Positions 13,852 through 47,968 of a DNA stretch of 60,437 nt are shown in pieces. Position numbers and translations under genes: made by a program. Below the pieces are notes generated by a model. That model did no database searches. It saw nothing but the letters and a program-made list of their open reading frames with translations, and was not told where the DNA came from. The DNA comes from a virus (taxonomy: Duplodnaviria > Caudoviricetes): IMG/VR virus record IMGVR_UViG_3300036831_000053, positions 1 to 60,437 of that record; one strand, given 5' to 3'. Within the stretch, counting starts at the first letter, position 1, and each line of letters starts with the position of its first letter.

Positions 13852-13881
13852 TTGTGCCCCGCTGATCAGGCGGGGTACACT
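13852..13881 (+). promoter_or_regulatory. Palindromic promoter/operator copy 1 (between divergent HNH and RHH genes)
   Basis: TTGTGCCCCGC-TGATCAG-GCGGGGTACACT; ATG 7 nt after the -10 box. Confidence 0.8.
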
Positions 13882-29685: not shown

Positions 29686-30251
29686 CCCACGTGCACCTGA
29701 TCGTCGGCGAGCCGGGCGTGGGCAAGTCCTGGCTGATGGACCGTCTCACGGAGGGGTATCACCGCATTCAGGTCGACGGGACACCGAGACGAGAGTGGGT
29801 CTCGCGCGTGCCCGAGATGAAGGATGCGCAGATGGCCGATATCGCGGCCGTGGAGCTGGGCGCCCGCGCCGGCAAGCACCCCGAGGGTTACCCGGGCACC
29901 GACGCGATGAGCATGACCGCGATTGTCGATGTCGAGCGCTGGCTGACCCACATCACCATGTCGAAGCCAGTAGTCGCCGAAGGTGCGCGGCTCGGTGTCC
30001 GCCGGTTCGCCGACGTGTGTGCGACCGCAGGTCACCACCTGCACGTCTATCACCTCGTGGATCCGGATCGCGCCGCAGCTCAGCGGCTTGCGCGCGGCTC
30101 GAACCAGAAGGACAGTTGGATCAAGGGAGCCCGAACCAGGGCTGAACGGTTCGCGATGTACGTGCAGGAGCAGCGCCTGGGCGAAGTGCAGCACCTGACC
30201 TGTCCGCCGGAGCAGGTGCTGGCCGTACTTCGTCGCGAGACGGGGCTGTGA
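29682..30251 (+). CDS. P-loop nucleotide kinase (5-hmU DNA kinase-like family)
   Basis: GEPGVGKS, GTDAMSM, EGARL and RGSNQ..SWIKG..TR motifs. Confidence 0.72.
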   Translation: MTHVHLIVGEPGVGKSWLMDRLTEGYHRIQVDGTPRREWVSRVPEMKDAQMADIAAVELGARAGKHPEGYPGTDAMSMTAIVDVERWLTHITMSKPVVAEGARLGVRRFADVCATAGHHLHVYHLVDPDRAAAQRLARGSNQKDSWIKGARTRAERFAMYVQEQRLGEVQHLTCPPEQVLAVLRRETGL

Positions 30252-30287
30252 CTTCTCGCCCTGTCGCGAGAACGTGGAGGTGACGCA

Positions 30288-30779
30288 ATGCCCCCCCGTC
30301 CGAACAAGCTGGCGCACAAGGAAGCGGTCAAGGAGCCGGCCACCGTCACGGCCCTGCGGGTCATCAACGGTGCCCGGGTGGTCGAGCTGGTGGCGTCGGG
30401 CCTGACGATCGACGCGGCGGCCAAGCTGCTGAAGATCAACCGGAATCAGGCCAGCAAGCTCCTGCACGACACGCTGGCCGACACGCTGGCCGAGCGGCAG
30501 GCCGACCGCGAGGCGGTCCTGGCTCAGCAGCTGGAGGGCTACCGCCTGCTGAAGCGGGCCTGGATGCCGGTCGCCCTCAACCCGGCGCACGAGAAGGCGT
30601 ACCAGGGCGCCCGGATCATCCTGGACGCGATGGACAAGGAGAATCTGCTGCTTGGCCTCAACGCGGCTATGAAGATCGAGATCTCGAACAAGAGGGTCGC
30701 CGAGACCGTGGCCGATGTGGTCGAACTCCTGGAAGACACCAGCGCCGACATGCCGATGATTCTTGAGGCCGAGCAGTGA
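30288..30779 (+). CDS. Terminase small subunit (HTH)
   Basis: Coupled to terL; HTH region and MDK...LLGLNA motif. Confidence 0.7.
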   Translation: MPPRPNKLAHKEAVKEPATVTALRVINGARVVELVASGLTIDAAAKLLKINRNQASKLLHDTLADTLAERQADREAVLAQQLEGYRLLKRAWMPVALNPAHEKAYQGARIILDAMDKENLLLGLNAAMKIEISNKRVAETVADVVELLEDTSADMPMILEAEQ

Positions 30780-32590
30780 CCTACGCCCGCGCCGAGGTGA
30801 GCCTGGAGGAGACGATCCGGCAGAAGCTGGATCAACTGAACCCTAACGAGCGACGCCTGGCCGAGATACGGCTGGAGCGCATCGTGAAGCGGCGCCGGGC
30901 CGTGCGCGAGTTCCGCAGCCCCGGCCACGTGGCCAAATATACGAACCCCGACGTGGTCCAGACCGAGATGATGGTGGCCCTGGACAAGGCCGTCATCCAG
31001 GCCGAGACCGGCATGCAGCGCCGCTGGGTGATCTCGACCCCTCCGCAGGAGGGCAAGACCATGCGGCTCGGCACGGCCACGCCGCTGTGGCTGTTGATCC
31101 GCGACCCGTCCCGCCGCATCGTCGTCGCCTCCTACGAGCAGGGCCTGGCCGCGCGGTCCGCGCTGGCCGTCCGGCAGCTCATCGAGTCCTATGGCGGCGG
31201 CTACAAGGGTGACCGGGCCTCGGCCCGGCAGGAAGACCACTTCGGCCTACTGCTCGACCCCGACCGGGCCCAGCAGACCAACTGGCAACTGGCCGACGTG
31301 CCCGGCCGGATCAACGGCGGCATGACGGCCGTCGGTGTCGGCTCCTCGTTCACTGGCCGCTCGGCCGACATCTTGATCGTGGACGACGCGGTCAAGGACC
31401 CGAAGGCCGCAGACAGTGCCCTCCAGCGGCAGGTGCTGTGGAACTGGTGGCAGGCCGTGGCCACGACCAGGCTGGCCGGTAAGGCCATCGTCATCGTCAT
31501 TGGGACCCGCTGGCACGAGGACGACCTGCTGGGCCGGATCATCCGCGAGGACGAGAAGGAACCGACGCCGGAGTGGTCCCGGCTCAACATTCCCGCCCAG
31601 GCCGGCGCCGACGATCCGCTGGGCCGCAAGCCCGGCGAGTACCTGCGCAGCGCCCGCGAGGGCCGCGAATGGGTCAAGATTCGCCGCCGCGTCGGTGAGC
31701 GCTGGTGGGCCGCGATGTACCAGGGCAACCCGCACCCGATCTCCGGTGGCGTGTTCAAGCAGGAGTGGTTTGACCGCAACCGCGTCAAGGAGGCGCCAGA
31801 GCTGGCCCGGGTCAGCGTGTTCGTCGACCCGGCCGACAACGAGGGCGGTGGCGACGAGGCGGGCATCGTGGTCGCCGGCAAGGGCTACGACGAGGACCAC
31901 TACATCCTGGCCGACCGGTCCGGCGCCATGACGGCCGGCCGCTGGCTGCGGGTCGCCTTCCTGGCCGCCCTGGAGTTCAACGCCACGGAGATCGCCTACG
32001 AGCAGTCCCTGTCGGGCCTCAAGCGCACGGCGCGGCAGACCTGGAAGGACATGGTCCGAGAGTTCCGGGTGCTGAACAAGCTCTACAAGCCGCTGCCGAA
32101 CACGCCTCGGCCCAAGCTGCCGCCGGTCGACCTGCTGACCAAGGCGGTCACCCTGCTCGTGCGCGACGACGCGACCGCAACGGACCGGGTGAACCAGGAG
32201 CACAACCTGATCGAGATGTGGCCGTTCGTGCCGGCCGCGCTGGAGCTGCCCGCCATCGGCCTGCCCATCCGGGCGTTCCCGGCCAGGGGTTCGAAGACCT
32301 TCCGGGCCCGGATGATCGCGCCGACGTTCGAGGGCGATCACGTCAAGCTCCTCGGTCACTTCCCCGAGGCCGAACACCAGATGATCACCTGGCAGGAGTC
32401 GCAGAAGTCGCCCGACCGGATGGACGTGTTCGTGCACGCGATCACCGAGCACAGCAAGATCGGCGGCCCGGTCGACATGCGGGCCGCGAAGGGCGGGACG
32501 ACGATGCGCGCGGCCGGCAGCGCCGCACCGAAGGAGTACCGAGGCGACAGCATGCGCGACGTGGTGCGCAGGATGCGGACAGGGCGGTGA
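30776..32590 (+). CDS. terL: Terminase large subunit
   Basis: PPQEGKT, ILIVDD.VKD, GTRWHEDDL.G, YQG.P, VDPA and SPDRMD motifs. Confidence 0.95.
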   Translation: MTYARAEVSLEETIRQKLDQLNPNERRLAEIRLERIVKRRRAVREFRSPGHVAKYTNPDVVQTEMMVALDKAVIQAETGMQRRWVISTPPQEGKTMRLGTATPLWLLIRDPSRRIVVASYEQGLAARSALAVRQLIESYGGGYKGDRASARQEDHFGLLLDPDRAQQTNWQLADVPGRINGGMTAVGVGSSFTGRSADILIVDDAVKDPKAADSALQRQVLWNWWQAVATTRLAGKAIVIVIGTRWHEDDLLGRIIREDEKEPTPEWSRLNIPAQAGADDPLGRKPGEYLRSAREGREWVKIRRRVGERWWAAMYQGNPHPISGGVFKQEWFDRNRVKEAPELARVSVFVDPADNEGGGDEAGIVVAGKGYDEDHYILADRSGAMTAGRWLRVAFLAALEFNATEIAYEQSLSGLKRTARQTWKDMVREFRVLNKLYKPLPNTPRPKLPPVDLLTKAVTLLVRDDATATDRVNQEHNLIEMWPFVPAALELPAIGLPIRAFPARGSKTFRARMIAPTFEGDHVKLLGHFPEAEHQMITWQESQKSPDRMDVFVHAITEHSKIGGPVDMRAAKGGTTMRAAGSAAPKEYRGDSMRDVVRRMRTGR

Positions 32591-32592
32591 CC

Positions 32593-33060
32593 ATGGAAAT
32601 CAGACCGCAGTCAGAGACCTATCACCCCGAGAATCGGCGGAGCCAGATCCGATCGATCCAGCTCAACGTCGAGATCATGGACCAGGGCCTGCGGGTCAGT
32701 CTGCCGGTGGCCCAGGGCTGGGCCGCGTTCGCCTCGTCGCCACACTCCCTCGTGGCCGCCGTCAAGGCCGCCTTCACCGAGGCCGAGATTGCCGCGTACG
32801 CCCAGTGGCGGAACGGGACCTACGACCTGGCTGACACGGTGAGTCGGGACGACCCCGACCCGATCGTGGCCGCGCCACCGAATGAGATCAGCCGGCACCG
32901 ACCGAAGACGAGACGCGATCAGTACAACCCGGCCGACTGGAAGGTGGACGGCATGGGCCGGTACGTGAGTCCGACGGGCCGCAGCTACGCGCCGGACAGC
33001 TACATGGCGAGCCGGATTCGGGCGATGTGGGTGAAGCATGGGATCAACGGCGCCGCGTAA
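32593..33060 (+). CDS. Hypothetical protein
   Basis: ORF directly after terL. Confidence 0.55.
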   Translation: MEIRPQSETYHPENRRSQIRSIQLNVEIMDQGLRVSLPVAQGWAAFASSPHSLVAAVKAAFTEAEIAAYAQWRNGTYDLADTVSRDDPDPIVAAPPNEISRHRPKTRRDQYNPADWKVDGMGRYVSPTGRSYAPDSYMASRIRAMWVKHGINGAA

Positions 33061-33063
33061 CGG

Positions 33064-33093
33064 TTGTGCCCCGTTGAGCGTGCGGGGTACATT
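33064..33093 (+). promoter_or_regulatory. Palindromic promoter copy 3
   Basis: TTGTGCCCCG-N9-CGGGGTACATT; leaderless ATG at 33100. Confidence 0.82.
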
Positions 33094-33099
33094 GGGTCC

Positions 33100-34426
33100 A
33101 TGACCGATGACGACCGACCGAAGTCAATCCTCGAACTGCCACCGGAGTTCGCGCGCGAGGTGGTCCTGGATGTCGCCCTGCTCCCCGACGCGCTGCTGAA
33201 CCACCTGTTGGTGACCATCGACCAGGTCATCACCGTCCTGCATGCTACCTACCCCGACCAGCTGGCTGTCGAGCACGAGGACGAGCACCTGATCGTCTAC
33301 CGCACCAAGGACACCGGCGAGCAGATGCGCATCCTGGAGTCCCTCCAGAACCAGTACGACCGTAACGGTGAGTCCCATGGCGACCTGTGACGTGTGCGGC
33401 GAGCGCGAGGCCGCCGGGGTCGGTGCGATGCCCGGTGTGCCGATCAGCTTCGCCTACTGCAAGGACTGCCTGCGAGCCAACGCCCACCCGTACGTGATCG
33501 TCGTGGCCAATACCGCAATGCTCGGCGGCATGGCCGAGGCCGCGCCGTGGTGGCAGCAGCTCGTGGACGACACCCTGACTCACCTCCACAAGTCGCGTGA
33601 GCGGTTCGACGGCGACGTGTCGGCCGAGATCGCGATCATGGCCGAGGAGGAGCACCGGGCGAACGCCGAGTTCGCGGCGACCGATGAAGGGCAGCCGTGC
33701 GTGCCGGGTTGCGTCGGACTGCATGAGCACCCGGAACGGGGTGAGTTGTGATGGGTGACAGCGGCAGCACCAGCAAGGCGTACATCGACCGCCTGCGCGT
33801 TGAGAGCGTCAACGCGCTCCTGGAGACCGTGGCCGCACTGGCCGACCGGGTGTCCGTTGCCTCGAACCTCGACGATGTGGATCACGTCTACGTTATCGAG
33901 GACGTGCTGTGGCACCTGGACGTGATCGCTGGACGCATCCCGCCGCGAGGACAGAAGGTGGACTTCCCATGATCCTTTCGTGCATTGCCTTGGGCGCAGC
34001 TCTCGCCTCTCTCGTCCTGGCCATCGTGGCTTACCGGGGGACGAAGTGAGCTACTTCGACGACAACGAGGACTACCTGACGGGTCTGCCTCGGCCGATCC
34101 GGTCGGAATACGTGCAGCAGCCGGCACCGCGCGCCGAGGGCGACGAGTGCAAGCACGAGCTGCCGCGCAGCATGTGCGCCTGGTGCAACGGCAGGCCGGT
34201 GGACCGCGAGGTGGAGCAGCTGCTGGGTGGTACCGATCGACCGGGGTCCGACAAGGACCAGGCCGACCTGGAGACCAGGGTGGCGATGTATCAGGGGACC
34301 TGCAACCGGTGCCATGAGCCGTTCGAGGTGGGTGCCACCATTGGCTGGTCCCGTTCGCTCCGGATCACGGTAGGTCCATGCTGCTGGTCCCCGACCGAGA
34401 GCAACGCGGGTGGGTGGTCCTCGTGA
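33100..34426 (+). CDS. Four small hypothetical proteins (33100-33390, 33377-33751, 33748-33972, 34046-34426)
   Basis: Mostly coupled ORFs; two have Cys/Zn-finger motifs. Confidence 0.55.
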
Positions 34427-35085
34427 TGGCCCGGGGCCACTCGCTGCACGGCGCGATCGTCGGCCTGGCACTCGCGCCGTTGGCGTGGCACCTCGACCCC
34501 GGCATGGGTCCGGTACTGGGGTCCGCCGCCTGGACCATCGGTACCACGATCGGTTCACTGGTGCCGGACCTCGACCACCCGAAGTCCAGGCTGACTCACG
34601 CGCTGGGACCGGTCACCTGGCTGATCAACAAGGTCCTGGTCCGGCTGTCGAAGTCGGTCTATTACCTCACCAGGAGCAACCAGGACTACCCGGACACCAA
34701 CGGGCACCGGTGCTTGACCCATACCCCCGTGTTTGCCGCTGTGCTGGCTGCTGCCGTGAGCTGGGGGCTGGCGGCTACCGACGCGCGACCGGCCGCTGTT
34801 CTCGTGGGAGCGGCCCTGGGGACCGGGTGTCTGGCCCATCTGTTCGGCGACTCCCTCACCAACTCCGGCGTGCCCTGGCTGTGGCCACTCAAGAACCGCA
34901 GCACCGGCCGCCGCTGGCAGCACTACGGGATCCCGAAGGTGATGCGGTTCGAGACCGGCGGCGGGACGAGCCATGGCAAGGCGCTCACCTGGAAGGCGCA
35001 CGGCGAGCACATCGTCACCGCCGCATCCATGGGTCTCGTGGTCGCGGTGCCGGCGTTCTACCTGGTCGCAGGGTGGGGGATATGA
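34426..35085 (+). CDS. Membrane-bound metal-dependent hydrolase (YdjM/DUF457-like)
   Basis: GSLVPDLDHPKS, HR.LTH and HLFGD.LT.SGVP.LWP motifs; several TM segments. Confidence 0.85.
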   Translation: MARGHSLHGAIVGLALAPLAWHLDPGMGPVLGSAAWTIGTTIGSLVPDLDHPKSRLTHALGPVTWLINKVLVRLSKSVYYLTRSNQDYPDTNGHRCLTHTPVFAAVLAAAVSWGLAATDARPAAVLVGAALGTGCLAHLFGDSLTNSGVPWLWPLKNRSTGRRWQHYGIPKVMRFETGGGTSHGKALTWKAHGEHIVTAASMGLVVAVPAFYLVAGWGI

Positions 35086-35704
35086 GCCCGGCCTGGGTGC
35101 TGGTCATGCCGATCGCCGGTCTGGTCATCACCGTGCTGGTCGTGCTGTTCACGGTGTCCAACCTGATCCGGGATGGCATCCGGCGGCGGGTCGGGCCATG
35201 GCGTGGGACCTGGATCTTGAACAACACCCCAAGGTCGCAGCCGCACCACTGCCGTCTCCCGCGTGCCAGCTCTCGCAGGCGACGTGACCAGTGGCGATGC
35301 GAGACCTGCGACCGGGTCTACAGGCAGCACGCGGTGCATGGGGGGTTCGGAGATGTGTTCTGGATCTGGAAGGAGCGCGGATGAAGATCAGCGGAGAGAT
35401 GGCCACCTATGAGCTGCGCCTGGAGGACGTGGGCGTGGTGATGAACCGGTGGGATGAGGAGTTCCTGCCGGCCAAGGCCACGGCCTACTGGAGCAAGGAC
35501 GAATCGGGCACCTGGGTGATCGAGGTCGTGAACATCAGCGGCCCCGGCATCCTCAAGAAGACCGGCGAGCTGGGCACACGCACTCGGACCGAGTGGTACG
35601 ACGCCAAGACGGTGACGGAGCTGCCGGGGGGCCTGTGGGCGCAGATCCTGGCCAACAAGCCCCTCAACGGCGTGGTGGCAGCCGAGGTCGCCTTCGTCGA
35701 CTGA
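35082..35704 (+). CDS. Two hypothetical proteins (35082-35384 membrane/CxxC; 35381-35704)
   Basis: ATGA overlaps. Confidence 0.55.
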
Positions 35705-35711
35705 GACAGCC

Positions 35712-35752
35712 AGAGACCCCCCTGACTGATGTCGCTGGTCAGGGGGGTCTCT
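35712..35752. terminator. Hairpin between convergent operons
   Basis: AGAGACCCCCCTGAC-N11-GTCAGGGGGGTCTCT, 15-bp stem. Confidence 0.75.
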
Positions 35753-35934
35753 CTGTGTCCCGGTGGGCCAAACTGGAGCCGGTCCAAATCTACCGGACCG
35801 TAGGTCGATCTTACACCTTGTATCCGCAGGTCAGGCGCTATGTTGATGTTGAACGAAGATCGTTGATCTCAGGTCGCACGGACGCCTGCGCCCATTATGC
35901 GCGGTCGTCCGTGCGAGACATGCGACGCGACACG

Positions 35935-37842
35935 TCACGCGGACGCTTGCGCGCGCACGGGCTCGGGCCCGCGCATCCATGTGCCCGCGAGCGCGTGCGC
36001 TTCACCCGCGTCGCGGGCCTGCGCGAGGTGTCGGTAGACGGTGGCCCGGGCGACTCCGGCCCTGGTGGCGATGTCATCGGCCTTGCCGGGGCCTTGGTCG
36101 AGGACGGCGAGGATGTCAGCGTGGGTCTTGTCGGCACCTTCGGCGGGGATGTCGATGTCGTCGACCTCGGGCACTGCGGCGCCGGCCCCGGTGAGGGCCT
36201 TCCAGCCCTTGGGCTCCATGCGCCGTTCGAGCCGGGCCGCAGCGTCGATGTGGGCTTTCACGTCCCTCTGCCGCACGTAGAAGCCCTTGGCGATGTTGGC
36301 GGTCTTGTGCTCGCTGTCCTGGAGCAGGTACTGGCCGATCTTCAGGCCGTGGCTGTACCAGCCGTAGCGCTTCTGGTCGCCCCACAGCACCGAGGAGGCG
36401 TGCTGGTCGAGCATGAGGCTCACGATGGCCGTGAGCTGGGACTGGAGCTCCTTCGCCCCGGTGTCGGCCTTGCTGCCGTTCTGGCAGGCCAGGATGAGCT
36501 TGCCGCCGCACTTGCGGATCCTCTTGCCGATTCGGCCGATGAGGGCGAGCCACTTCGCGCCAGCTTTGCCCAGGTCATTGGCCTCGGCCACGAAGTCGGG
36601 GTACTCGTCGATGATCACCACGAGCCAGGGGGTGTCCACGGAGGGCTCGATCACGTCGGACTGCTCGCCCGGCCGCAGCGAGCTGTCCCGTAGGTCTTCC
36701 TCGCGGCTCTCGATCCAGGCCATGATCCGGGTCAGCATCACGCAGGTCGACTCGAAGTCAGTGGCCAGCGGCAGATCGAGCACCGGCTGCCACATGGCCA
36801 GGGTCGCGCCACCAGCCATGTCGGCGGCGATGATGTGGCAGTCCTGCATCGACGACAGCCAGATCATCAGGGTGCGCAGCCAGATCGACTTGCCGGAGCC
36901 GGACGCGCCGACCAGCAGGGTGTGTTGGAGGCGGTAGGGGTCGTCGTTGCCGTCGGCGTGCAGGCCCATCGGGAAGCGCGCATCGGTGCTGACCAGGGTG
37001 ATCGAGCCGGGCGTGGGCATCGGGTGCGGGATGTTGCCCTTCCACGGGTCGCGCGGCAGGAACCGGAACTGGACTTGGCGGGCGTTCTCCGCCACCGGCA
37101 GCAGGTAGACGCTGCTCAGGCGCATCCCGTAGAAGCTGGCGAGCTGGTCCATGGACTCCGGCCGGCCGGCCATCGCGGCCGTGGCACCCTCGCGGAGCCG
37201 GACGGTCAACAGGGACTGGCCCCGGTTGCCAGTGGCCCCGACAACTTTGGACCCGTGCAGCTCCCGGATCGGACCCCGGTCCTTGTTCGACAGGATCCGC
37301 CAGCGCCGCGCGTACCGGTCCGAACGGCCCGCGACCCGAATGCGACGGTGGTACCACCAGACGCCACCGAAGCCGACGGTACCGGCCAGCCACCAGTACT
37401 CCGTGATCGTCGAAGGACCGGCCCCGACACGCAGGGCCAGCCAGCCGCCGAGGGCCGCCGTGAAGGTACCGACGTAGATCCGCTCCGGTACCCGGTCCAG
37501 GACGCCCTTGCGGCCGGCATCCACCGAGTCCGGTACCACCCACATGATGGCCTTGGACCACGGTCCCGAGAGCCGAGGACCGAGTACCGCCAGCGTGGCA
37601 CCGCAGATGGGCAGTACCAGGGCCACCCACCAGGTCCAGCTGGCACCGAAGCGCCAGATCAGGGCCACGATCTCGGTACCGGTACCGAACCAGAGCGGCG
37701 TGAGGAACCGGCGCCAGCGCCACGACAGGTGGGCGATACCACGACCGATCGGCCGCAGGATCCACCGGAAGACCGCGTACATCACGATCCCGGTGACGAT
37801 GCCCTCGCCGAACAGCTTCTCCAGGGGGTGTTTGTCGCTCAT
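35935..37842 (-). CDS. TraB-like FtsK/SpoIIIE DNA translocase with N-terminal TM segments and C-terminal HTH
   Basis: Walker A GASGSGKS, Walker B VVIIDEYP, RK.G..LILA.Q; C-terminal DDIATRAGVARATVYRHL. Confidence 0.85.
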   Translation of the reverse strand: MSDKHPLEKLFGEGIVTGIVMYAVFRWILRPIGRGIAHLSWRWRRFLTPLWFGTGTEIVALIWRFGASWTWWVALVLPICGATLAVLGPRLSGPWSKAIMWVVPDSVDAGRKGVLDRVPERIYVGTFTAALGGWLALRVGAGPSTITEYWWLAGTVGFGGVWWYHRRIRVAGRSDRYARRWRILSNKDRGPIRELHGSKVVGATGNRGQSLLTVRLREGATAAMAGRPESMDQLASFYGMRLSSVYLLPVAENARQVQFRFLPRDPWKGNIPHPMPTPGSITLVSTDARFPMGLHADGNDDPYRLQHTLLVGASGSGKSIWLRTLMIWLSSMQDCHIIAADMAGGATLAMWQPVLDLPLATDFESTCVMLTRIMAWIESREEDLRDSSLRPGEQSDVIEPSVDTPWLVVIIDEYPDFVAEANDLGKAGAKWLALIGRIGKRIRKCGGKLILACQNGSKADTGAKELQSQLTAIVSLMLDQHASSVLWGDQKRYGWYSHGLKIGQYLLQDSEHKTANIAKGFYVRQRDVKAHIDAAARLERRMEPKGWKALTGAGAAVPEVDDIDIPAEGADKTHADILAVLDQGPGKADDIATRAGVARATVYRHLAQARDAGEAHALAGTWMRGPEPVRAQASA

Positions 37843-38798
37843 GCCGACTTCTCCTTGACGGCGCGGGCAATGTTGCCCGCTCGGTTGGTGCCGAGGCCGT
37901 ACGCGGTTGCGATGGCCCGGCGTGAGGTGAGTCCTTCGTCCATGGCGCGCTGGATCAGATCTTCGTCGGACAGGTGTGCGTGGCTGGCCCGCTCGACCGG
38001 TGCCGAGACCTCGGCTGCCTCGCGGCGTGCCGGCTGCACCTTGGCCGGGGCCGGGTCAACGGTGGCCGGGTCGAACTTGCCGGGCTGCTCGTCGGTGATC
38101 CTGGGCATGATCTGGGTGCGCTCGGCGTCGTTGTCGGGCACGTTCACCGGGAGCGGCTTGACCAGCTCGGGCGCGGTGCTAACGGGGGTGAGCGGGGGGG
38201 TGTGCATCTCGGGTACTTCCTCGCGGGTCGCGAAGATCTTCGGGTACTCGGCCCACGCCTGCTCGGCCTCGGCCGCCATGCGCAGAACCTGGCCGTCGAT
38301 CCACTCCTGAGTGGCTACTCGGTCGCGGTGGGCTGCCTGGTTAAGGTCGGGGTGCTGCTCCTGGTAGCCCGTGTAGATGGGGTCCGGCACCGTCGGGGGA
38401 AGGTCCGGTACCGGCTCGATGGCCTTGACACTGGTACCGGGCTGGCCGTGCTTGTGGAGGACTAGCAGCATCCAGGCCAGCATGGCCGGCGCGATACCAC
38501 CGAGCAGGGCCGCCAGTGCGGTACCGGCCACCAGGTAGTGGTCGGCCACGTTGCTGGCCAGGGAGAGGCCGATAGAGGTGAGAGCCAGCGCGCCGGCCGC
38601 CCGCTGTGCTGCGGTGCGACGCATCCAGATGTCGACGGCCAGGGCCGTGACGGCGTCCAGGCAGATCGGGAAGGCCCAGGCCCGCAGGCCGAACCCGGCC
38701 CGAACGGCCAAATCCTGGCTGGAGCTGAACGAGATCCAGGCAGTACCGGCCACGGTGAGCAGCGCGAGACCGCGCAGGCGGATGGTCTTCAGGTTCAC
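37839..38798 (-). CDS. DUF2637/Spd-like membrane protein with C-terminal HTH
   Basis: A.ISF....DLA..AGF...AWAFPI.LD and SLA.NV..H motifs; four TM segments; SRRAIATAYGLGTNRA. Confidence 0.78.
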   Translation of the reverse strand: MNLKTIRLRGLALLTVAGTAWISFSSSQDLAVRAGFGLRAWAFPICLDAVTALAVDIWMRRTAAQRAAGALALTSIGLSLASNVADHYLVAGTALAALLGGIAPAMLAWMLLVLHKHGQPGTSVKAIEPVPDLPPTVPDPIYTGYQEQHPDLNQAAHRDRVATQEWIDGQVLRMAAEAEQAWAEYPKIFATREEVPEMHTPPLTPVSTAPELVKPLPVNVPDNDAERTQIMPRITDEQPGKFDPATVDPAPAKVQPARREAAEVSAPVERASHAHLSDEDLIQRAMDEGLTSRRAIATAYGLGTNRAGNIARAVKEKSA

Positions 38799-38977
38799 TA
38801 GTCCTCCTCGGTGGGGCCGAACGCGGCGACCCGTTCGCGCTTGGTCAGGACGTGGTGGACCTGGCACCAGGCGATGAAGCCAAGGAACTCCAGGACCACG
38901 GCGAGGTACCAGCTCTCGGCGAGCGATACCGCGAAGGCGCCGACGAGTACCGCGCCGAGTACCAGGGTGGTCTTCAT
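38798..38977 (-). CDS. Small two-TM membrane protein, first gene of the transfer-like operon
   Basis: MKTTLVLGAVLVGAFAVSL...; stop overlaps next GTG. Confidence 0.6.
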   Translation of the reverse strand: MKTTLVLGAVLVGAFAVSLAESWYLAVVLEFLGFIAWCQVHHVLTKRERVAAFGPTEED

Positions 38978-39053
38978 GGGTACCATTGTCGCATGTGCCC
39001 CACGCATTTACGGGGTGCTACCTGCGGAAACAGGATTGACCCACGAAAAGGGG

Positions 39054-39082
39054 TTGTGCCCCGCAGTACCACGGGGTAGATT
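39054..39082 (+). promoter_or_regulatory. Palindromic promoter copy 4 (variant copy at 38993-39018 faces the transfer operon)
   Basis: TTGTGCCCCG-N8-CGGGGTAGATT. Confidence 0.75.
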
Positions 39083-39171
39083 TGCCCTCACAACAGCAGA
39101 GCGGGAACGCGGTCAGGGGGTGTCCCGACTGACCGGGTGACCGCTACAACCGAAGATCACAACCGAAAGCG

Positions 39172-39475
39172 AGATCCACCCGCGTTCCTGGAGCAGCGCG
39201 TGGCCGAGATCGAGGAGAAGGCGGGCGTCGCGGTGGTGCGGCCGAAGCAGACCATCGAGGTCCTGGCGAAGCAGTTCAACCTGACCGAGGCCGAATCCGA
39301 CGGCATCCTGGGCCACTTCATGGCGGGCGGCTCCCCGACCGCTGGCGGTGTGGCCAACGCGTTCACCTCGTTCAGCCAGACGGTACGTTCGGCCGAGCGC
39401 TCCGACGCCATCGAGCAGGTGGCCATCGAGGCGATGAACGTGGCCGCAGCTCAGGCCCGGCTCGCCAACCGCTGA
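39172..39475 (+). pseudogene. C-terminal remnant of a DUF932-like protein
   Basis: FLEQRVAEIEEKAG..IEVLAK...GILGHF..GG..TAGGV.NA.TSF.Q resembles that family's C-terminus; no good start or RBS. Confidence 0.55.
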
Positions 39476-39480
39476 TCCAC

Positions 39481-39509
39481 GCGGGGCGCCCACCCCGAGG
39501 GCGCCCCGC
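39481..39509 (+). terminator. GC-rich hairpin just upstream of the tRNA
   Basis: GCGGGGCGCCC-N7-GGGCGCCCCGC. Confidence 0.55.
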
Positions 39510-39514
39510 CTTCC

Positions 39515-39586
39515 GCCTCCGTAGCTCAGTGGCAGAGCGGCCGGTTTCTACCCGGCAACGCGTCGGTTCGAGTCCGACCGGGGGCA
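39515..39586 (+). tRNA. tRNA-Arg (anticodon UCU), CCA not encoded
   Basis: Cloverleaf: GCCTCCG/CGGGGGC acceptor, GCTC/GAGC D stem, GCCGG-TTTCTAC-CCGGC anticodon arm, GTCGG-TTCGAGT-CCGAC T arm. Confidence 0.92.
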
Positions 39587-39620
39587 CGCGGAACACCCGC
39601 AGAACAGGAAGGGGCATGGC

Positions 39621-40758
39621 ATGGAGACCGAGGAGCCGGAGACCAAGCGGTACATCACCGCCGAGCAGCTGCGGTACCTGCCCTTCGATGTGGCCTACGC
39701 GCCCGCTGGTGGCCTCGTCGAGGTGTACCTGAACTACTGGTGGGCGGTGAACCCGACAAAGGGGCTCGTCTTCTTCCAGCGCAACACTCGGGCCGATGCG
39801 GTCGCGCAGTGCAACCGGTCGGAGGCCATCGCCAAGAAGGTCGCCGAGGTCTATGACCCGAGCTTGGGCATCGTCGTGACGCACGTGGAGCGGGCCTACG
39901 TCCCCAAGTCGATGGTCTACAGCCGCCTCAACGGCACCGAGCTGGCCACCGACCTGCGCGGCAAGGCCGTGCGGTGAACAAGCGCGAGTTGAAGCAGTGG
40001 GTCAAGGCCGAGCAGCCGTTCTTGGTGGACAACGTGCGGGGGATCAAGTACCCGACGTGGGACCAGATCGGCACGGGCAAGCTCAGCCGCAACATGGGCG
40101 CCCAGTTGACCGACGAGGCGCCGCACGTCCGGTACATCGTCTACGTAGGCGTGACCCCGGTGGCCTGGATGCTCCAGGACGACAGCCCGTGCGTGGTCAA
40201 CGAGGAGTTCGACCACGACATCCAGGCGTGGATCAAATCCGCGTGGGGCTGCAACGTCTACGAGGAGGTGCCGGACCGGTGGTGAAGAGGCGGCGCAAGC
40301 GTGGCCTACTGGCCCGACTCGTCCTCGCGTTCGTGGCCACGGCCGGGAAGCACGGCAAGAAGCAGGCCACACGGGCCGGTGGCGGCCTGAAGACCGCGCT
40401 GGGCCCAAAGGTGCTGCGGAAGGCGTCGGAGGAGTACGGCGGCAAGCGCAAGGCCAACGCCCCGATCCCCGTGGTCGTGTGCCCGGTCCAGCCCGAGGCG
40501 GCAGCCGACCGGTGGGAGATCTCGGCCATGGTCGGCGGCTACCACGTGCCGTTCGTGATGGTGGCCGACTACGACATCAGCGAGCTGGACGACGAACGCG
40601 TGGTCACGATGGCCGTCCTGGCGGCTTGTCACATCACTCACGACCAGCGGCCGATCGAGCACTGCTGGGAGGTGACCCAGCTGGTCGCGACGGGGGATGC
40701 GGCGCTGACCTGGTTCGGGAGCGCTGGCCACTTCCCGACGCACGTGATCAAGCAATGA
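39621..40758 (+). CDS. Three hypothetical proteins (39621-39977, 39974-40285, 40282-40758)
   Basis: GTGA-coupled ORFs. Confidence 0.55.
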
Positions 40759-40923
40759 TGATCATGTCGTAACCTCTGCGGCATGAATCGGTGGGGGACG
40801 ATCGACCGGCTCATTCGCGTGCGGCGCGCGGTGAGTCGGTCGATTCCGTATGTGGTGCTCGGCGGTGCGTCGGCGGCGGTACTGGTCATGGTGGGCTGGG
40901 CCTATTTCGCCAGATGAGGGACC

Positions 40924-40953
40924 CTGTACCCCGCCACGCAGACGGGGTACATT
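40924..40953 (+). promoter_or_regulatory. Palindromic promoter copy 5
   Basis: CTGTACCCCG-N9-CGGGGTACATT ahead of ORF 40986-41369. Confidence 0.82.
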
Positions 40954-40985
40954 GGACAAGCAGAGCTGACAACGAGAGGCAAGAG

Positions 40986-41369
40986 ATGGCAACGGTAAGC
41001 AAGATGGAGCCCGAGGCCGAAGCGCAGATGTGGATGGCCTCCTGGGGGTTCACCGGCGCGTCCGGCGCGACCAACGGGGCTGTGTCCGGGCTCGTCGAGT
41101 TCGTGAACCTGGCGAACGCCCGGCAGTCCCTGGTGTCCTTCGCCGAGGACGCGGTGGAGAAGGACTCGCGAGAGCGTCAGTCGATGATCAGCACGCTGGG
41201 CAGGGAAGAGGGCGAGAGCCTGCCGGACATGGCCCACGAGTGGGACCAGAAGCGACACCTGGTGGGCTCGTTCCGGGAGTGGAACCGCGAGTTCTCGCTG
41301 ACCCTGGAGAGCTGCACCGGCCATCACCTGGAGTTCCGCATCGAGTGGGATGGCGCTGCGGACGAGTGA
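40986..41369 (+). CDS. Hypothetical protein
   Basis: GAGG RBS; single-gene cassette between two palindromes. Confidence 0.6.
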   Translation: MATVSKMEPEAEAQMWMASWGFTGASGATNGAVSGLVEFVNLANARQSLVSFAEDAVEKDSRERQSMISTLGREEGESLPDMAHEWDQKRHLVGSFREWNREFSLTLESCTGHHLEFRIEWDGAADE

Positions 41370-41391
41370 GCCAGATCGCAGCCGATTCGAT

Positions 41392-41421
41392 ATGTACCCC
41401 GCACGAGTTGCGGGGTACAGT
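41392..41421 (+). promoter_or_regulatory. Palindromic promoter copy 6
   Basis: ATGTACCCCGCA-N5-TGCGGGGTACAGT. Confidence 0.82.
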
Positions 41422-41459
41422 CGTCTTATCAGGTTGAACAACCGAACAAGGAGTCATAG

Positions 41460-41798
41460 ATGACCAGCACCGAACCCGGCGTCGCCTCCGTGGCCACTCA
41501 GCGCGTCCGCCGTGTCCTCGCTGACCTGTTCGACGAGATGCCCGAGGTCTGGACCAACAGCACCGTGACCGTGACCCGAGTCCTGTTCAGCATGAACATC
41601 GTGGACTCACGCCTGCGGAACGGCGTCACCCGCGAAGACGTGCCGCAGGCGCTGAGCAAGGTCTTTCTCTCGGCCCGCGTCACCTGGGACCAGGAGCTGA
41701 TCAGCATCACCTGGACCCCCGAGGCCGACGAGGACCGTCCACTGCCCCGCGAGTACGACACCCCCGAGGACTACCCCGGCCCCGACTTCGACATCTGA
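41460..41798 (+). CDS. Hypothetical protein
   Basis: AAGGAG RBS. Confidence 0.6.
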   Translation: MTSTEPGVASVATQRVRRVLADLFDEMPEVWTNSTVTVTRVLFSMNIVDSRLRNGVTREDVPQALSKVFLSARVTWDQELISITWTPEADEDRPLPREYDTPEDYPGPDFDI

Positions 41799-41852
41799 GC
41801 CGAAACGCCCTGCGGGGCGTCGCGGGAATCGAGACCCGCCTGATGATGGCTC
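41797..41852 (+). ncRNA. Hammerhead ribozyme, type II
   Basis: GAGCC-GAAA-CGCCC-TGCG-GGGCG-TC-GCGGG-N8-CCCGC-CTGATGA-T-GGCTC: complete core, three stems, GUC cleavage triplet. Confidence 0.88.
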
Positions 41853-41873
41853 CCATGGACAGGAGAACGGACG

Positions 41874-41978
41874 ATGGCCAAGGAAAGCAAGCCGGTCAAG
41901 GAGACCGAGAAGCGGATCAACGAGGCGAACAAGTCCGGCAAGTCGGCGGACGAGAAGCTGCGCGACCTGATCAAGTAA
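41874..41978 (+). CDS. 34-aa charged peptide (MAKESKPVKETEKRINEANKSGKSADEKLRDLIK)
   Basis: AGGAG RBS just downstream of the ribozyme; genome-typical codons. Confidence 0.6.
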   Translation: MAKESKPVKETEKRINEANKSGKSADEKLRDLIK

Positions 41979-42042
41979 CGGGGAACCGACGACCCGGCCG
42001 GGCTCACGACAGCCCGGCCGGGCAACCCAAGGAGAACACACG

Positions 42043-42330
42043 ATGCACACGATCCACATCCACCGGGAAGACGAGGGGCAGTGCTACGAGTTGAGCGTGG
42101 ACGGCCAGTTCGTCACGGCTAGCGACAACGAGAAGCTGATCGGCGCGGCCGTCCTGGAGCAGCTGGCGAAGCTCGGCGAGGTCTGCCTGATCGGCATCAC
42201 CGACCTGGCGCCGGAGAAGCGGGCCGTCCGGCAGGCCGAGAAGCTGGCCAAGGTGCGCCTGTCCGTGACGACCGAGGCCCAGGCGCGCGTGCAGGACGCA
42301 CGTCGGCAGCCGGAGCCGTGGCGAGCATGA
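42043..42330 (+). CDS. Hypothetical protein
   Basis: AAGGAG RBS. Confidence 0.6.
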   Translation: MHTIHIHREDEGQCYELSVDGQFVTASDNEKLIGAAVLEQLAKLGEVCLIGITDLAPEKRAVRQAEKLAKVRLSVTTEAQARVQDARRQPEPWRA

Positions 42331-42782
42331 GCCGCCCACTGTTCCGCCCGGCCGAGGCGGAGACCCTGACGGAGTTGTTGGGGCACATCGCGACGCATCC
42401 TGTTATCGAGTGGTGCGTCATCACCGCGTCCCGCACCTACGCCCGCGCCGGCACGATGCGGGCCATCCTGGAGTGCCTGCCGTCCTCGACGCGCCTGCGG
42501 CACGGTGCGGCGCGCGGCGGCGACCGACTGGCCGGACAGATCTGGGTCTGGCTCGGCCGGGAGCTGACCGAGTATCCGGTGACGGCGGAGCAGTGGCGCC
42601 TGACCCGCCGCGCTGGCCACCTCCGCAATCAGCTGATGCTGGAGGGGCGCGCGGGCGAGCCACGCGCCGACATCTGCCTGGAGTTCAACCGCGACCACAG
42701 TGCCGGCGCTGCCGACTGCGCGGCACGGGCGCGGCTGCTCGACATCCCCACCTTCACCTTCCCGTACACGACAGGGGCCTGA
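42327..42782 (+). CDS. SLOG-family (DUF2493/YspA-like) protein
   Basis: IT.SR, HGAARGGD.LA, AGH.RNQ.ML and S.G.ADC..RAR...IP motifs. Confidence 0.78.
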   Translation: MSRPLFRPAEAETLTELLGHIATHPVIEWCVITASRTYARAGTMRAILECLPSSTRLRHGAARGGDRLAGQIWVWLGRELTEYPVTAEQWRLTRRAGHLRNQLMLEGRAGEPRADICLEFNRDHSAGAADCAARARLLDIPTFTFPYTTGA

Positions 42783-44331: not shown

Positions 44332-44592
44332 GTGGTCGACAACCAGCACAAGCAGATCACCGGCTACCGCGACCTGCCGCAGCACGACCTCGACCTGGTC
44401 AATGAAATCAAGGCGGTCGAAGTGGAGCTGGCTCGGCTGTGGCAGAAGGTCCAGAGCCGCCAGTTCATGGTCGCCGAGGAGCCACAGGTGGACCGCCGCT
44501 GGCTGGCTGTCGCCCGGACTCACTTCCAGGAGGGCTTCAGCGCCCTGGTGCGCTCGGTGACCCGGCCGACCGACCCGTTCGATCCGCAGTGA
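44332..44592 (+). CDS. acb2: Acb2-like anti-CBASS cyclic-nucleotide sponge
   Basis: DNQHKQITGYRDL.....L.N.IK and RWLAVARTHFQEGF.ALVRSV..P match the Acb2 family signature. Confidence 0.85.
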   Translation: MVDNQHKQITGYRDLPQHDLDLVNEIKAVEVELARLWQKVQSRQFMVAEEPQVDRRWLAVARTHFQEGFSALVRSVTRPTDPFDPQ

Positions 44593-45277: not shown

Positions 45278-47968
45278 GTGGGCTGGTTCGCCGCACGCAC
45301 CGGCAACACTGACCGCGACGGCAAACGCACCAACCAGCCCAGCGCCTCCATGACCGCCGCAGGCAGCCGCATCAACCTGCAAGACCGCAACGCCGTCAAC
45401 ACCATCGCCGCCACCAAAATGGGCTGGCAACACCAAGCCTGGAACTACCGCGACCTCATCGGCGAACTGGCCAGCGCCCTGCGCTTCCGAGCCAACGCCA
45501 TCGCCAAAGTCGCCCTCATTATCGGCCAAGTCAACGAAGACGCCGACACCCCCATCCCCGCCGACAGCCCCGAATCCACCCTCGACCCGATCGTGGCCCG
45601 CGCCGCCCAAGACGCCCTGTCGCGGCTGCCGTGGCGCAACGGTGGAGCGTTCGGCGGCCGGATAGACACCTGCTTCGGGACGACCGGCGAGGCATGGCTG
45701 CACGGCAAGACCGACCCGGCTACGGGCGAGGAGCGCTGGACGGTTCGGTCCACCGACGAGATCACCCCGGTGATGGGTGGCAGCAACCTGGGCATCGTCG
45801 AAGTGCCTGGTCGGCCGGCGATCCCGATCGACAAGAACAAAGAGGCCCTGCTGCGGCTGTGGAACCCTCACCCGCGTTTCGCGATGCTGGCTGACAGCCC
45901 GATCCGCTCCATGCTGCCGGTGTGTGAGGACATCGTGCTGATTGCCCGGGAGATCCAGGCGGCCAGCAAGTCCCGTATCGCGGCCAACGGCCTGCTGCTG
46001 GTCCCGCACTCGATGAGCATGATCCGGGCGACACCGGGCGGCCAGGAGGGTGATGCCGAGGTCGAGGACTTCGCGGCCGGCCTGGAGGCGGCGATGATGG
46101 CGCCGATCGCGAACGAGGGCGACGCGGGCGCGGTGGTGCCGATCGTGATCCGGGGCGACAGCGAGGACATCGGCGCGGTCAAGCACCTGTCGATGGTCCG
46201 TGAAACCAGCCCGATCTTGATCGAGAAGCTCGACAACGCCCTTAAGCGCATGGGCGAGACCCTCGACGTACCGCCCACGGTGGTGACCGGCCTCCAGGAC
46301 ACCAACCACTGGAACGCCTATGTGATCTCCGACGAGACGTGGACCAACCACATCGAGCCTGGTGAGCGGCTCATCGTCGACTCCCTGACCGAAGGCTTCC
46401 TGCGGCCGATCCTCCAGCTGCCGACCACGGCCGGTGGCTACGGCCTGACTCGCCAGCAGGCGCAGACCGTGCAGGTCTGGTACGACGCCAGTGGTGTCAC
46501 CAAGAACCCGAACCGCAGCCAGGACGCCCAAGCAGCGTTCGCTCTCGGTGCGATCGGCTTCAAGGCGCTCTTGCGGGACATGGGCTTCGACGAGTCGGAC
46601 GCGCCCACCGAGCAGGAGGCGATGCAGATGCTGGCGTTCAAGCAGACGCCGGATCCGGCCACCGCCGCTCAGCTCATCAACCTGGCGTTCCCCGGCGTCC
46701 ACCTGGTCGTGCAGGCGCCTGGTTCGACCGAGCAGCCGGCCGTGGGTGGCCCGGCCGTGGTGCAGAGCAGGCCAGCTCTACCTGCCGGACAGCAGCAGGG
46801 TCAGCCACCGAGCACGCGGCTACCGGCCGGGCAGGCCAGCGTGCCGGCACAGGGCAACACTGGCCAGCCCATCGCACCCACGGCAGTCCGAGGTGCGGCA
46901 GATCAGCAGCGAGTACTCGATTCAGTACGGCTGCTCAGCGCTCAGCCGCTCGTCGACCTGGACCGCCAGCTGCGGGACCGGCTGCTCGACGCGGCCGACA
47001 TGGCCATCACCAACGCCGTCGAGAAGGCCGCCAAGCGGATCGTCTCGGCCGCTCAGCACAAGGTTGCCGCCGACGTGCTGAGTCAGTTCCACGGTGCCGA
47101 GCTGGCCGCCTACATCGGGCCAGAGGGCGTCGCCGAGCTGGGTCTGACCGAGGAAGCGCTGCTGAGCGCGGCATTCGCCTACCTGTACGAGAAGTTCATG
47201 GCCTGGTCGCTGTCCACGATCGAGTCGGCAGTGAAGGTCGCGGTCAAGGTCTTCGGCCTGGAGCTGCACGCGGCCGCGTCGCTGCGCAGCAAGATGGCCG
47301 GACGCCGACAGAGGGCATGGCACGGGTTCGAGCACAGCGTGAAGCAGCGCGCCCTCGCGAAGCTGTACGGCAAGGGCGGTACCGCCGAGGACGACCACAT
47401 CGGCGAGAAGGTGGACAGCGTCGTCATGCCGGGTGATGTGCGGACTGCGCTGGCCGAGATCGGCGGCCAGTCCTCGGTGCACGGCCGGTCTCGGCAGCCG
47501 CTCGGCGGCATCGCGACGGGCCCGGACGTACTGTCCGAGGTCGACCGGCGGATGGACCGGGTGGGCTTCACGTGGGAGTACGGGATCACCGACGGCCGGC
47601 GCCACGCGCATTTCCTGCCGCACATGGAGCTGGACGGCCAGCGGTTCTCCGGCTGGGATGATGCCGCGCTCCAGACCAGCGACGCCTACTCGTGGGTGGG
47701 CGATCACTACAAGCCCGGCGACCACAAGGGCTGCATGTGCGACTACGTGTGGGTGTGGGCACTCGACGAGCACAGCGCCGAGATCCAGCGGCAGCTCAAC
47801 GAGCCGGAGTCGCCGAGCATGGCCGGCAACCGACTCATGGCCGACCTGGACAACGCGGCCGGGCGGACCGGCACCACGGCTCAGCGCAACGTGGCTCAGC
47901 GGGAGCGCGTGCTGGCGGCGCAACGGCGCTGGCTGGCCAATGCCAACAACGCAAGGAGTGGATCATGA
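45278..47968 (+). CDS. Portal protein fused to a MuF-like minor head domain
   Basis: WQ..AW.Y...IGEL, W.PHP....ADSP and G..DTNHWNA motifs; C-terminal H..LDG and PGDH.GC.C. Confidence 0.88.
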   Translation: MGWFAARTGNTDRDGKRTNQPSASMTAAGSRINLQDRNAVNTIAATKMGWQHQAWNYRDLIGELASALRFRANAIAKVALIIGQVNEDADTPIPADSPESTLDPIVARAAQDALSRLPWRNGGAFGGRIDTCFGTTGEAWLHGKTDPATGEERWTVRSTDEITPVMGGSNLGIVEVPGRPAIPIDKNKEALLRLWNPHPRFAMLADSPIRSMLPVCEDIVLIAREIQAASKSRIAANGLLLVPHSMSMIRATPGGQEGDAEVEDFAAGLEAAMMAPIANEGDAGAVVPIVIRGDSEDIGAVKHLSMVRETSPILIEKLDNALKRMGETLDVPPTVVTGLQDTNHWNAYVISDETWTNHIEPGERLIVDSLTEGFLRPILQLPTTAGGYGLTRQQAQTVQVWYDASGVTKNPNRSQDAQAAFALGAIGFKALLRDMGFDESDAPTEQEAMQMLAFKQTPDPATAAQLINLAFPGVHLVVQAPGSTEQPAVGGPAVVQSRPALPAGQQQGQPPSTRLPAGQASVPAQGNTGQPIAPTAVRGAADQQRVLDSVRLLSAQPLVDLDRQLRDRLLDAADMAITNAVEKAAKRIVSAAQHKVAADVLSQFHGAELAAYIGPEGVAELGLTEEALLSAAFAYLYEKFMAWSLSTIESAVKVAVKVFGLELHAAASLRSKMAGRRQRAWHGFEHSVKQRALAKLYGKGGTAEDDHIGEKVDSVVMPGDVRTALAEIGGQSSVHGRSRQPLGGIATGPDVLSEVDRRMDRVGFTWEYGITDGRRHAHFLPHMELDGQRFSGWDDAALQTSDAYSWVGDHYKPGDHKGCMCDYVWVWALDEHSAEIQRQLNEPESPSMAGNRLMADLDNAAGRTGTTAQRNVAQRERVLAAQRRWLANANNARSGS

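Follow-up and report, generated by a model that had tools for sequence, protein, structure and literature searches.

What use might a tailed phage have for a TraB-type DNA pump of its own? The question is raised by the IMG/VR virus record IMGVR_UViG_3300036831_000053 (Duplodnaviria; Caudoviricetes), a tailed-phage genome of 60437 bases with direct terminal repeats and an estimated completeness of 100%, which was analysed over its whole length and is called the window below. Almost all of its genes lie on the plus strand; the only sizeable minus-strand genes are three adjoining ones that encode a predicted translocase of double-stranded DNA (dsDNA), a membrane protein of the DUF2637 family and a small hydrophobic protein, and that are followed by a conserved non-coding site. 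The reading that we favour, while giving it somewhat less than an even chance, is that this operon may push phage dsDNA across hyphal septa or into touching hyphae and would thereby provide for virion-free spread within a mycelium. The elements concerned are the following.

35935-37842, minus strand: predicted TraB/FtsK-type dsDNA translocase of 635 aa (Pfam, NCBIfam, AF2 and Foldseek), the ATPase of the text
37839-38867, minus strand: DUF2637 membrane protein, with a likely true start at GTG 38798 (319 aa)
38798-38986, minus strand: small protein with a predicted hairpin of two transmembrane (TM) helices, first gene of the operon, of 62 aa from ATG 38986 or 69 aa from ATG 39007
38995-39018, minus strand, at the operon head: copy of a palindromic element, 8 nt ahead of the in-frame ATG 38986
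35866-35919, minus strand: conserved non-coding site directly 3′ of the ATPase stop, consisting of GTCTC, the core GCGCATAATGGGCGCAGG and GAGAT
35693-35771: inverted repeat with 34-nt arms between convergent genes

The three co-oriented open reading frames (ORFs; 635 aa, 342 aa and, over 38798-39007, 69 aa) have third-position G+C contents (GC3) of 0.83-0.91, typical of coding DNA, and each product has one hydropathy segment above 1.8. Read directly from the sequence, the stop of the small ORF overlaps the GTG at 38798 (TAGTG), which is in frame with the DUF2637 ORF, and the TGA stop of the latter overlaps the ATG of the ATPase gene (ATGA); as judged from this layout, the three genes appear to be translationally coupled. 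The original prediction, made from the sequence alone, had described a minus-strand operon for a small TM protein, a DUF2637/Spd-like protein with TM and helix-turn-helix (HTH) parts and an FtsK-type ATPase with TM and HTH parts. ORFs, coding GC3, Pfam matches and AF2 helices all bear this out, but the end that it gave, 38977, falls short: the operon extends from 35935 to 38986 (or 39007).

Membership of the ATPase in the FtsK superfamily is supported by a match to Pfam FtsK_SpoIIIE (PF01580) of 32 bits, above the gathering cut-off of 24. All its PHROG matches are annotated as FtsK/SpoIIIE-like, its sequence matches in the PDB are EccC and FtsK, and several HTH models of Pfam match residues 566-617. 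An alignment of 39 homologues shows no variation in Walker A (G312-K318), Walker B (D412-E413) or a QNGSK motif. The AF2 model (pLDDT 83.4) features long N-terminal helices at residues 6-90 and 118-185, a beta-rich pre-motor domain (199-304), a RecA-like motor (308-536) and a winged helix (568-624) built as helix-helix-helix-strand-strand, and hence predicts the TraB-type architecture of N-terminal membrane part, motor and C-terminal winged helix. Foldseek ranks ten FtsK motor chains first (E 1e-15 to 3e-14, target TM-score 0.64-0.70), followed by the conjugation coupling protein TcpA, EccC/EssC and HerA.

A fold shared by TraB and FtsK leaves the question of which of the two is closer. The best NCBIfam model for the ATPase is plasmid_TraB (33.6 bits), then EccCa (29.4) and FtsK (15.6, compared with 447 for an Amycolatopsis chromosomal FtsK). 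A profile of the family, run against 1.84 billion representative sequences, gave 18646 matches at E 0.001 and 125 at 1e-30; among the matches listed, 74 proteins that lie outside the phage clade and measure about 560-780 aa were scanned in turn, and plasmid_TraB was the best NCBIfam model in 69 (33-199 bits, none near the cut-off of that model), the other five having no model (four) or EccCa only (one), while the FtsK model stayed at or below 48 bits throughout. Profile-profile alignment with hhalign matched the family to the TraB-like protein of plasmid pFP4 with a probability of 98.9 and a score of 140.7 over columns 117-480, into the membrane-proximal part, and to chromosomal FtsK with 97.6 and 101.1 over columns 210-538, the motor only. 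In a first tree the phage proteins formed one clade (SH-aLRT 100), nested (99) within the TraB-like radiation together with element-borne proteins, those of Amycolatopsis among them; in the best tree, for which an EccC domain served as outgroup and three rows with long branches were omitted, all 65 TraB-like, plasmid and phage rows stood opposite FtsK and EccC (SH-aLRT 98.9). Chromosomal FtsK/SpoIIIE does share the motor fold, a membrane anchor and a C-terminal winged helix, which in FtsK reads short DNA words, but no FtsK alpha or gamma domain of Pfam is matched in the ATPase. On these comparisons the ATPase is likely, although this is not settled, to be nearer to TraB than to FtsK.

The FtsK motor fold would also suit a developmental or segregation role, in which an FtsK/SpoIIIE-like pump at closing septa moves or traps phage or host DNA, either carrying it into spores as a carrier state or altering development. 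Phage FtsK-like genes have been read as a means of manipulating host development in the available text of two papers (PMC10117723, PMC13587820), and another route to persistence would be useful to a phage that has no integrase. Such a role is nevertheless unlikely in our estimation: the sequence neighbourhood of the pump is TraB-like and not that of chromosomal FtsK, its DUF2637 partner is found in transfer clusters on plasmids, and a private site beside the gene suits recognition of the element's own DNA.

The systems to which the operon bears the closest likeness are those of TraB, Tra and TraA on Streptomyces plasmids and the integrative and conjugative elements of actinomycetes (AICEs), e.g. 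pSVH1, pIJ101 and pWTY27. Shared features are a single ATPase of FtsK fold that has its membrane part at the N-terminus and a winged helix at the C-terminus, TraB as the best profile, a candidate cis site beside the gene, DUF2637 in the cluster, and stop/start overlaps, which the available text of one study also describes in spd operons (PMC4447253). According to the same text, TraB together with Spd proteins moves plasmid dsDNA into neighbouring compartments (PMC4447253). The TraB-like genes of pFP4 (NC_017833) and of the Streptomyces globisporus replicon NZ_CP108668 stand for plasmid TraB here. Compared with these the phage ATPase is only about 24-28% identical, is carried by a tailed phage, and has a phage element at the head of its operon and no GntR, Rep or integrase gene with it. 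The assignment to the TraB/Spd kind made in the original prediction is supported by the architecture, the plasmid_TraB best model of the ATPase and its neighbours, the hhalign comparison, the lack of an integrase (see below) and the annotated DUF2637 gene in the cluster of the TraB-like gene on both Streptomyces plasmids examined (119-122 bits).

In the window itself the 342-aa protein passes the cut-off of Pfam DUF2637 (PF10935) only marginally (22.9 against 22.8 bits), but 14 of its 18 orthologues from related loci match the family (best E 1.3e-25) and their alignment shows a conserved C-terminal motif; its neighbours in a protein atlas are DUF2637 clusters at 0.89, which we take as a lead only. 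The AF2 model (pLDDT 70) predicts four TM helices (residues 26-141), a further, long helix (173-207), a proline-rich linker that is disordered and variable, and a terminal three-helix HTH bundle (301-341, pLDDT above 90). Foldseek found no match for this model in the PDB at E 0.001; the sole notable resemblance of the HTH is to the FtsK gamma domain (41 columns, E 3.1, probability 0.8), a lead and not evidence, and tblastn of the protein against phages and plasmids gave zero matches. In two orthologues an HNH endonuclease lies inside the linker, between membrane part and HTH (L011:8910-9980 and L018:8944-9972). The small first protein (hydropathy peak 1.87) has no family match in scans of the profile libraries (Pfam, PHROG, NCBIfam, PADLOC), and in 10 of 14 related loci examined the DUF2637 gene is preceded by a small hydrophobic ORF like it.

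Likenesses have been noted before between plasmid transfer proteins and actinophages. Homologues of SpdB2 of pSVH1 were reported on actinophages phiC31 and VWB, and it was proposed in 2015 that they spread phage DNA, according to the part of that paper available (PMC4447253). Of the traits ascribed to SpdB2, the DUF2637 protein has four predicted TM helices and apparent coupling to an ATPase gene, and its predicted HTH may bind DNA; it differs from the homologues on actinophages in being accompanied by a TraB-like pump of its own. FtsK-like genes are also annotated in Streptomyces phages Stanimal, Yaboi and Wofford, in Thermobifida phage P1312 (ORF63) and in Mycobacterium phages Bobby and Schatzie, but their products are at most 28% identical to the window's ATPase, over one third of the protein. 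In the jumbo phage Stanimal the DUF2637 gene lies 60 kb from the ATPase gene, and its ATPase belongs to a different branch of the TraB-like radiation. No paper testing a TraB/FtsK-like gene of a phage was found among the main texts searched, in which DUF2637 is rarely named, and never in a phage context.

The head of the operon is marked by a palindrome that recurs through the genome. The family GYRCCCM-N6-12-KGGGYRC, in the form GTACCCCG-N7-9-CGGGGTAC and variants of it, has 11 copies where 0.63 are expected from first-order Markov simulations, starting at 13854, 17601, 33066, 38995, 40926, 41394, 52931, 54052, 54739, 56678 and 58963. Seven of them are followed on the plus strand by ATT..ATG, with the ATG 9-10 nt downstream, and three have no ATG. 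The family looks like a promoter or operator with leaderless starts that marks non-structural genes, and the copy at the operon head, which the original prediction had rightly recognised as a variant of the phage's own palindrome, is probably such a promoter or operator. The in-frame ATG behind this copy indicates that the operon is wired into the start-associated element of the phage. At the other end the inverted repeat at 35693-35771 is probably a bidirectional terminator that closes the operon; equivalent G+C-rich hairpins are found 3′ of the conserved site in relatives as well.

A membrane location and a probable early-type promoter element would also be expected of an exclusion or defence function, with a membrane pump that blocks or expels the DNA of superinfecting phages or conjugating plasmids, and ATPases of the FtsK/HerA type do occur in defence systems. 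PADLOC gave weak matches for the ATPase (mad8 23.6 bits, SspH 17.2 bits) but no convincing defence model, its two partners match no PADLOC model, and a conserved site in the phage's own DNA would have no obvious use in exclusion, which we hold to be very unlikely.

Within its lineage the operon is conserved. There are 41 homologues of the ATPase, with identities of 41-99%; contigs of 58-63 kb carry 18 of these. A single-protein search of viral and genome contigs found no loci and an alignment-based query was needed; run against viral contigs, it gave 20 related loci. The large terminase lies beyond the ATPase gene, as in the window, in 15 of these 20, a YdjM-like gene lies between the two in 17, and tblastn places a DUF2637 gene just upstream of the ATPase gene in 13; in the related loci examined a DUF2637-like ORF abuts the ATPase gene, and in the five whose flank reaches that far the portal is found on the other side of the operon. 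Proteins of related loci have diverged to 36-61% identity, with position and catalytic motifs kept. Comparison of these loci supports an operon that is syntenic and under purifying selection, and argues that it is an ancestral core feature of the 60-kb lineage, which consists of uncultivated soil phages, and not a recent insertion. The module thus recurs in related phages, as a survey suggested in the original prediction was to establish; the location between terminase (30776-32590) and portal (45278-47968) given there stands, but the lineage has the operon from its ancestor, which makes the term "inserted" mistaken.

Beside the module lies a gene for a YdjM-family inner-membrane hydrolase (34378-35085, plus strand, 90 bits), and a YdjM-like gene also accompanies the module in a 155-kb virus with another terminase type; this hydrolase may belong functionally to the module.

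An assembly chimera was considered as well and can be ruled out on three counts: a contig from a second assembler, possibly of the same sample, spans 30000-42427 with zero differences, a relative of about 96% identity from another study spans the junction at 35201-36909, and the order of genes is kept in related loci. Summed contig depth doubles at 36408-36941 in both sequencing runs (111 against about 46, and 52 against about 8), presumably an effect of the conserved Walker A region there, which the contigs of related phages have in common.

Outside the 60-kb lineage the module is found on a complete virus of 155,347 bp with direct terminal repeats (ATPase 43% identical, YdjM-like neighbour), on a 49-kb virus fragment, on a 100-kb record with a tyrosine integrase, and in Amycolatopsis. 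Large terminase (TerL) of the window's type was found neither in the 155-kb and 49-kb virus records nor in two Amycolatopsis genomes, which makes these elements other backbones, and occurrence on several unrelated backbones implies that the module moves between elements. In Amycolatopsis sp. WAC 01376 it is found at one end of an HK97-type prophage, adjoining comEC; genes of this prophage encode D5 primase, portal, MuF, scaffold, capsid, tape measure and Dit, the TraB-like and DUF2637 genes have Fic and GntR/UTRA-regulator genes as neighbours, and no integrase was seen within the 39 kb read. In a second Amycolatopsis strain the ATPase is split into two ORFs, and a strong match was present in 3 of 201 sampled genomes of the family to which the Amycolatopsis genome belongs, one of them flagged as unpublished. 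Such a scatter over the 60-kb lineage, the 155-kb virus, the 100-kb integrase record and the HK97-type prophage is what one would see of a hitch-hiking remnant of an AICE or plasmid, functionless for the phage. That the module keeps its place and intact catalytic motifs in proteins so far diverged, and stands under the phage's own start element, makes a mere remnant extremely improbable.

Clues to the DNA on which the pump may act come from the region directly behind its gene. The window has a single occurrence of the core pattern TAAYGNG(G)SGCAGR (35885-35897, minus strand), and 9 of the 20 viral loci likewise have one each, in every case immediately behind the ATPase gene and on its strand; three more loci have variants, and there is no occurrence elsewhere in 480 kb of related loci. 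DNA 3′ of the ATPase stop was aligned from 16 genomes. Across 12 phages, 12 columns within about 75 nt are invariant, although the proteins are only 36-61% identical. In layout, the site has GTCTC/ATCTC words in inverted orientation, a core that is nearly palindromic, direct (T/C)GAGA(C/T) words, three at most, and then G+C-rich hairpins, and 10 of the 16 sequences have 3-5 words of the GTCTC/GAGAC type in their first 130 nt where 0.5-0.8 are expected. An RNA element was rejected: the RNAalifold consensus is worth -1 kcal/mol and there is no Rfam family. A protein-binding DNA site is the better reading. We regard the site as a candidate cis-acting, clt-like recognition site. The clt of pWTY27 is described, in the available text, as extending over the end of traA and the adjoining 159 bp (PMC3583192), and the likeness lies in a conserved site that adjoins the translocase gene, here in a phage operon.

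Two membrane proteins with predicted DNA-binding tails and a conserved site could alternatively serve the phage's own replication or packaging, the HTH of the DUF2637 protein and the site tethering replicating DNA to the membrane, or the pump resolving or feeding concatemers. We consider this improbable: a canonical large terminase and portal are present, the words of the site form no array elsewhere in the genome, and no role in replication is known for TraB-like proteins.

Does the module, then, make this virus a conjugative phage-plasmid, as the original prediction proposed? Its statement that no integrase is recognisable was confirmed by six-frame searches with Phage_integrase, Resolvase and Recombinase, all empty with positive controls detected, and no tyrosine integrase was found in two complete relatives either. 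An AICE is defined by integrase, Rep and Tra; the window has no tyrosine or serine recombinase and has a full virion gene set. Extrachromosomal maintenance and conjugation between mycelia would agree with the missing integrase, the TraB/Spd-type module and a ParB-like gene (28253-28891), and there is a precedent in pZL12/phiZL12 (Zhong et al. 2010, J Bacteriol 192:3747), a Streptomyces plasmid-phage that combines a tailed-phage genome with tra genes of the Streptomyces type, in the portions of two papers available (PMC3583192, PMC4487206), and that carries ParA/ParB (PMC4487206, likewise in part). The window is set apart from pZL12, which reportedly measures about 90 kb and lives as a plasmid, by its 60 kb, the lack of ParA and the lack of a recognised replicon. 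Six-frame searches of the window with AAA_31 and CbiA for ParA were empty, no plasmid replicon, Rep or repressor was recognised among the window genes scanned, the ParB-like gene has no Pfam ParB match at E 0.001 and sits just in front of the terminase genes, all genes other than the operon form one plus-strand array as in lytic phages, and nothing in the two complete relatives indicates a plasmid state. With no ParA and no recognised replicon, the term phage-plasmid is left without positive support, and a true conjugative phage-plasmid like pZL12 seems to us distinctly improbable; as far as gene content can tell, a virulent phage would account for the data no less well.

The movement reading that we prefer would work as follows. 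Transcribed from the phage's own start-associated palindrome, the operon would supply a TraB-like hexameric pump, its DUF2637 partner and the small membrane protein, which together would form a membrane-embedded complex for dsDNA translocation at septal cross-walls or hyphal contacts. The winged helix of the pump, perhaps with the HTH of the DUF2637 protein, would probably recognise the conserved site behind the pump gene, where the pump would load on phage dsDNA; replicating phage DNA would be driven into the next compartment before lysis, and one infection would reach more of the mycelium without virions. It is tempting, if doubtful, to see in this lineage integrase-less, probably virulent phages that possess a movement machinery of their own (TraB-type pump, partners and private site) and carry naked genomes between compartments; the movement proteins of plant viruses are the analogue that we propose.

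Several observations weigh against this reading. The equivalog plasmid_TraB (NF041214) has a cut-off of 800 bits, which the ATPase is far from reaching, and the Amycolatopsis chromosomal FtsK itself scores 52 bits on it; since the model is moreover so narrow that the TraB-like proteins of pFP4 and NZ_CP108668 score only 426 and 419 bits, the score of a hidden Markov model (HMM) alone is weak evidence and does not discriminate. The first tree left its base unresolved, and an approximately unbiased (AU) test (p 0.4; long branches are involved) failed to reject the alternative in which the plasmid pair is joined to FtsK, which is why the position of the ATPase is given above as likely but not settled; of the HMM and phylogeny check suggested in the original prediction, profiles, hhalign and best tree lean to TraB, while the AU result leaves the deep tree open. 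The window's own site is degenerate, with two words (one GTCTC, one GAGAT) compared with five in some relatives, and the word GAGAY shows no enrichment or array elsewhere in the genome and no strand bias beyond coding bias. There is no GntR-type TraR/KorA regulator among the window ORFs scanned; a GntR regulator is present beside the Amycolatopsis relatives and on both Streptomyces plasmids. In phiC31, one of the reported carriers of an SpdB2 homologue, no match to DUF2637 (PF10935) was found. The mycelial actinobacterial host presupposed by this reading is deduced from relatives: a phage contig of 60,468 bp filed under a Pseudonocardia metagenome-assembled genome (MAG), and the closest cellular copies of the module, on the chromosomes of two Amycolatopsis strains. 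Both are mycelial genera. Finally, a lytic phage would gain only where neighbouring compartments survive long enough.

The remainder of the genome is that of a tailed phage, with the following features.

6910-9576, plus strand: tape measure
28253-28891: ParB-like protein, directly upstream of the terminase genes
30776-32590: large terminase
39057-39079: second palindromic element, in the divergent region just upstream of the operon head
39515-39587, plus strand: tRNA-Arg(TCT), in the same divergent region
45278-47968: portal
47692-49848: head protein
plus strand: major tail protein
within the window: endolysin
within the window: phage-type replication genes (Erf, SSB, replication initiator-like of the initiator/DnaD-like kind, DnaB)

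Both ends of the record are identical over 127 nt, a signature of circular assembly, which gives a true genome length of 60310 bp and makes the major capsid gene run across the window ends; what the original prediction called a "circle" is this overlap of the assembly. The tRNA is the sole Rfam match over 35500-39700. Megablast of 35000-40000 gave zero matches to isolated phages, among which the window has no close relative; its portal shares 27-35% identity with those of phages of Arthrobacter, Microbacterium, Streptomyces and Mycobacterium. The label "cluster B-like" is not supported, its basis being just about 29% portal identity to mycobacteriophages of 68-70 kb. An 86-aa protein (44332-44592, plus strand) has an Acb2/Tad1 hairpin domain (Pfam, 56.4 bits) and is likely a sponge for cyclic-nucleotide defence signals (anti-CBASS/Thoeris).

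The idea of phages equipped for transfer is not new, as pZL12, the 2015 remark on SpdB2 and the repeated listing of FtsK-like genes in actinophages attest. Particular to the present case are a core operon in an integrase-less 60-kb lineage, its phage start element and its own conserved site, and its value is that of a well-defined, testable example, not of a new principle. The lineage offers a compact and conserved test case of three genes and one site, and a cultured Amycolatopsis strain has a related module beside a prophage. If the movement reading is true, phages of mycelial bacteria would have a second, particle-free route of spread, and receptor-based resistance would be bypassed inside the mycelium; this would change how plaque growth, the containment of infection by development of the Streptomyces type and receptor-based resistance itself are viewed, and would link the evolution of phages with that of conjugative elements in actinomycetes.

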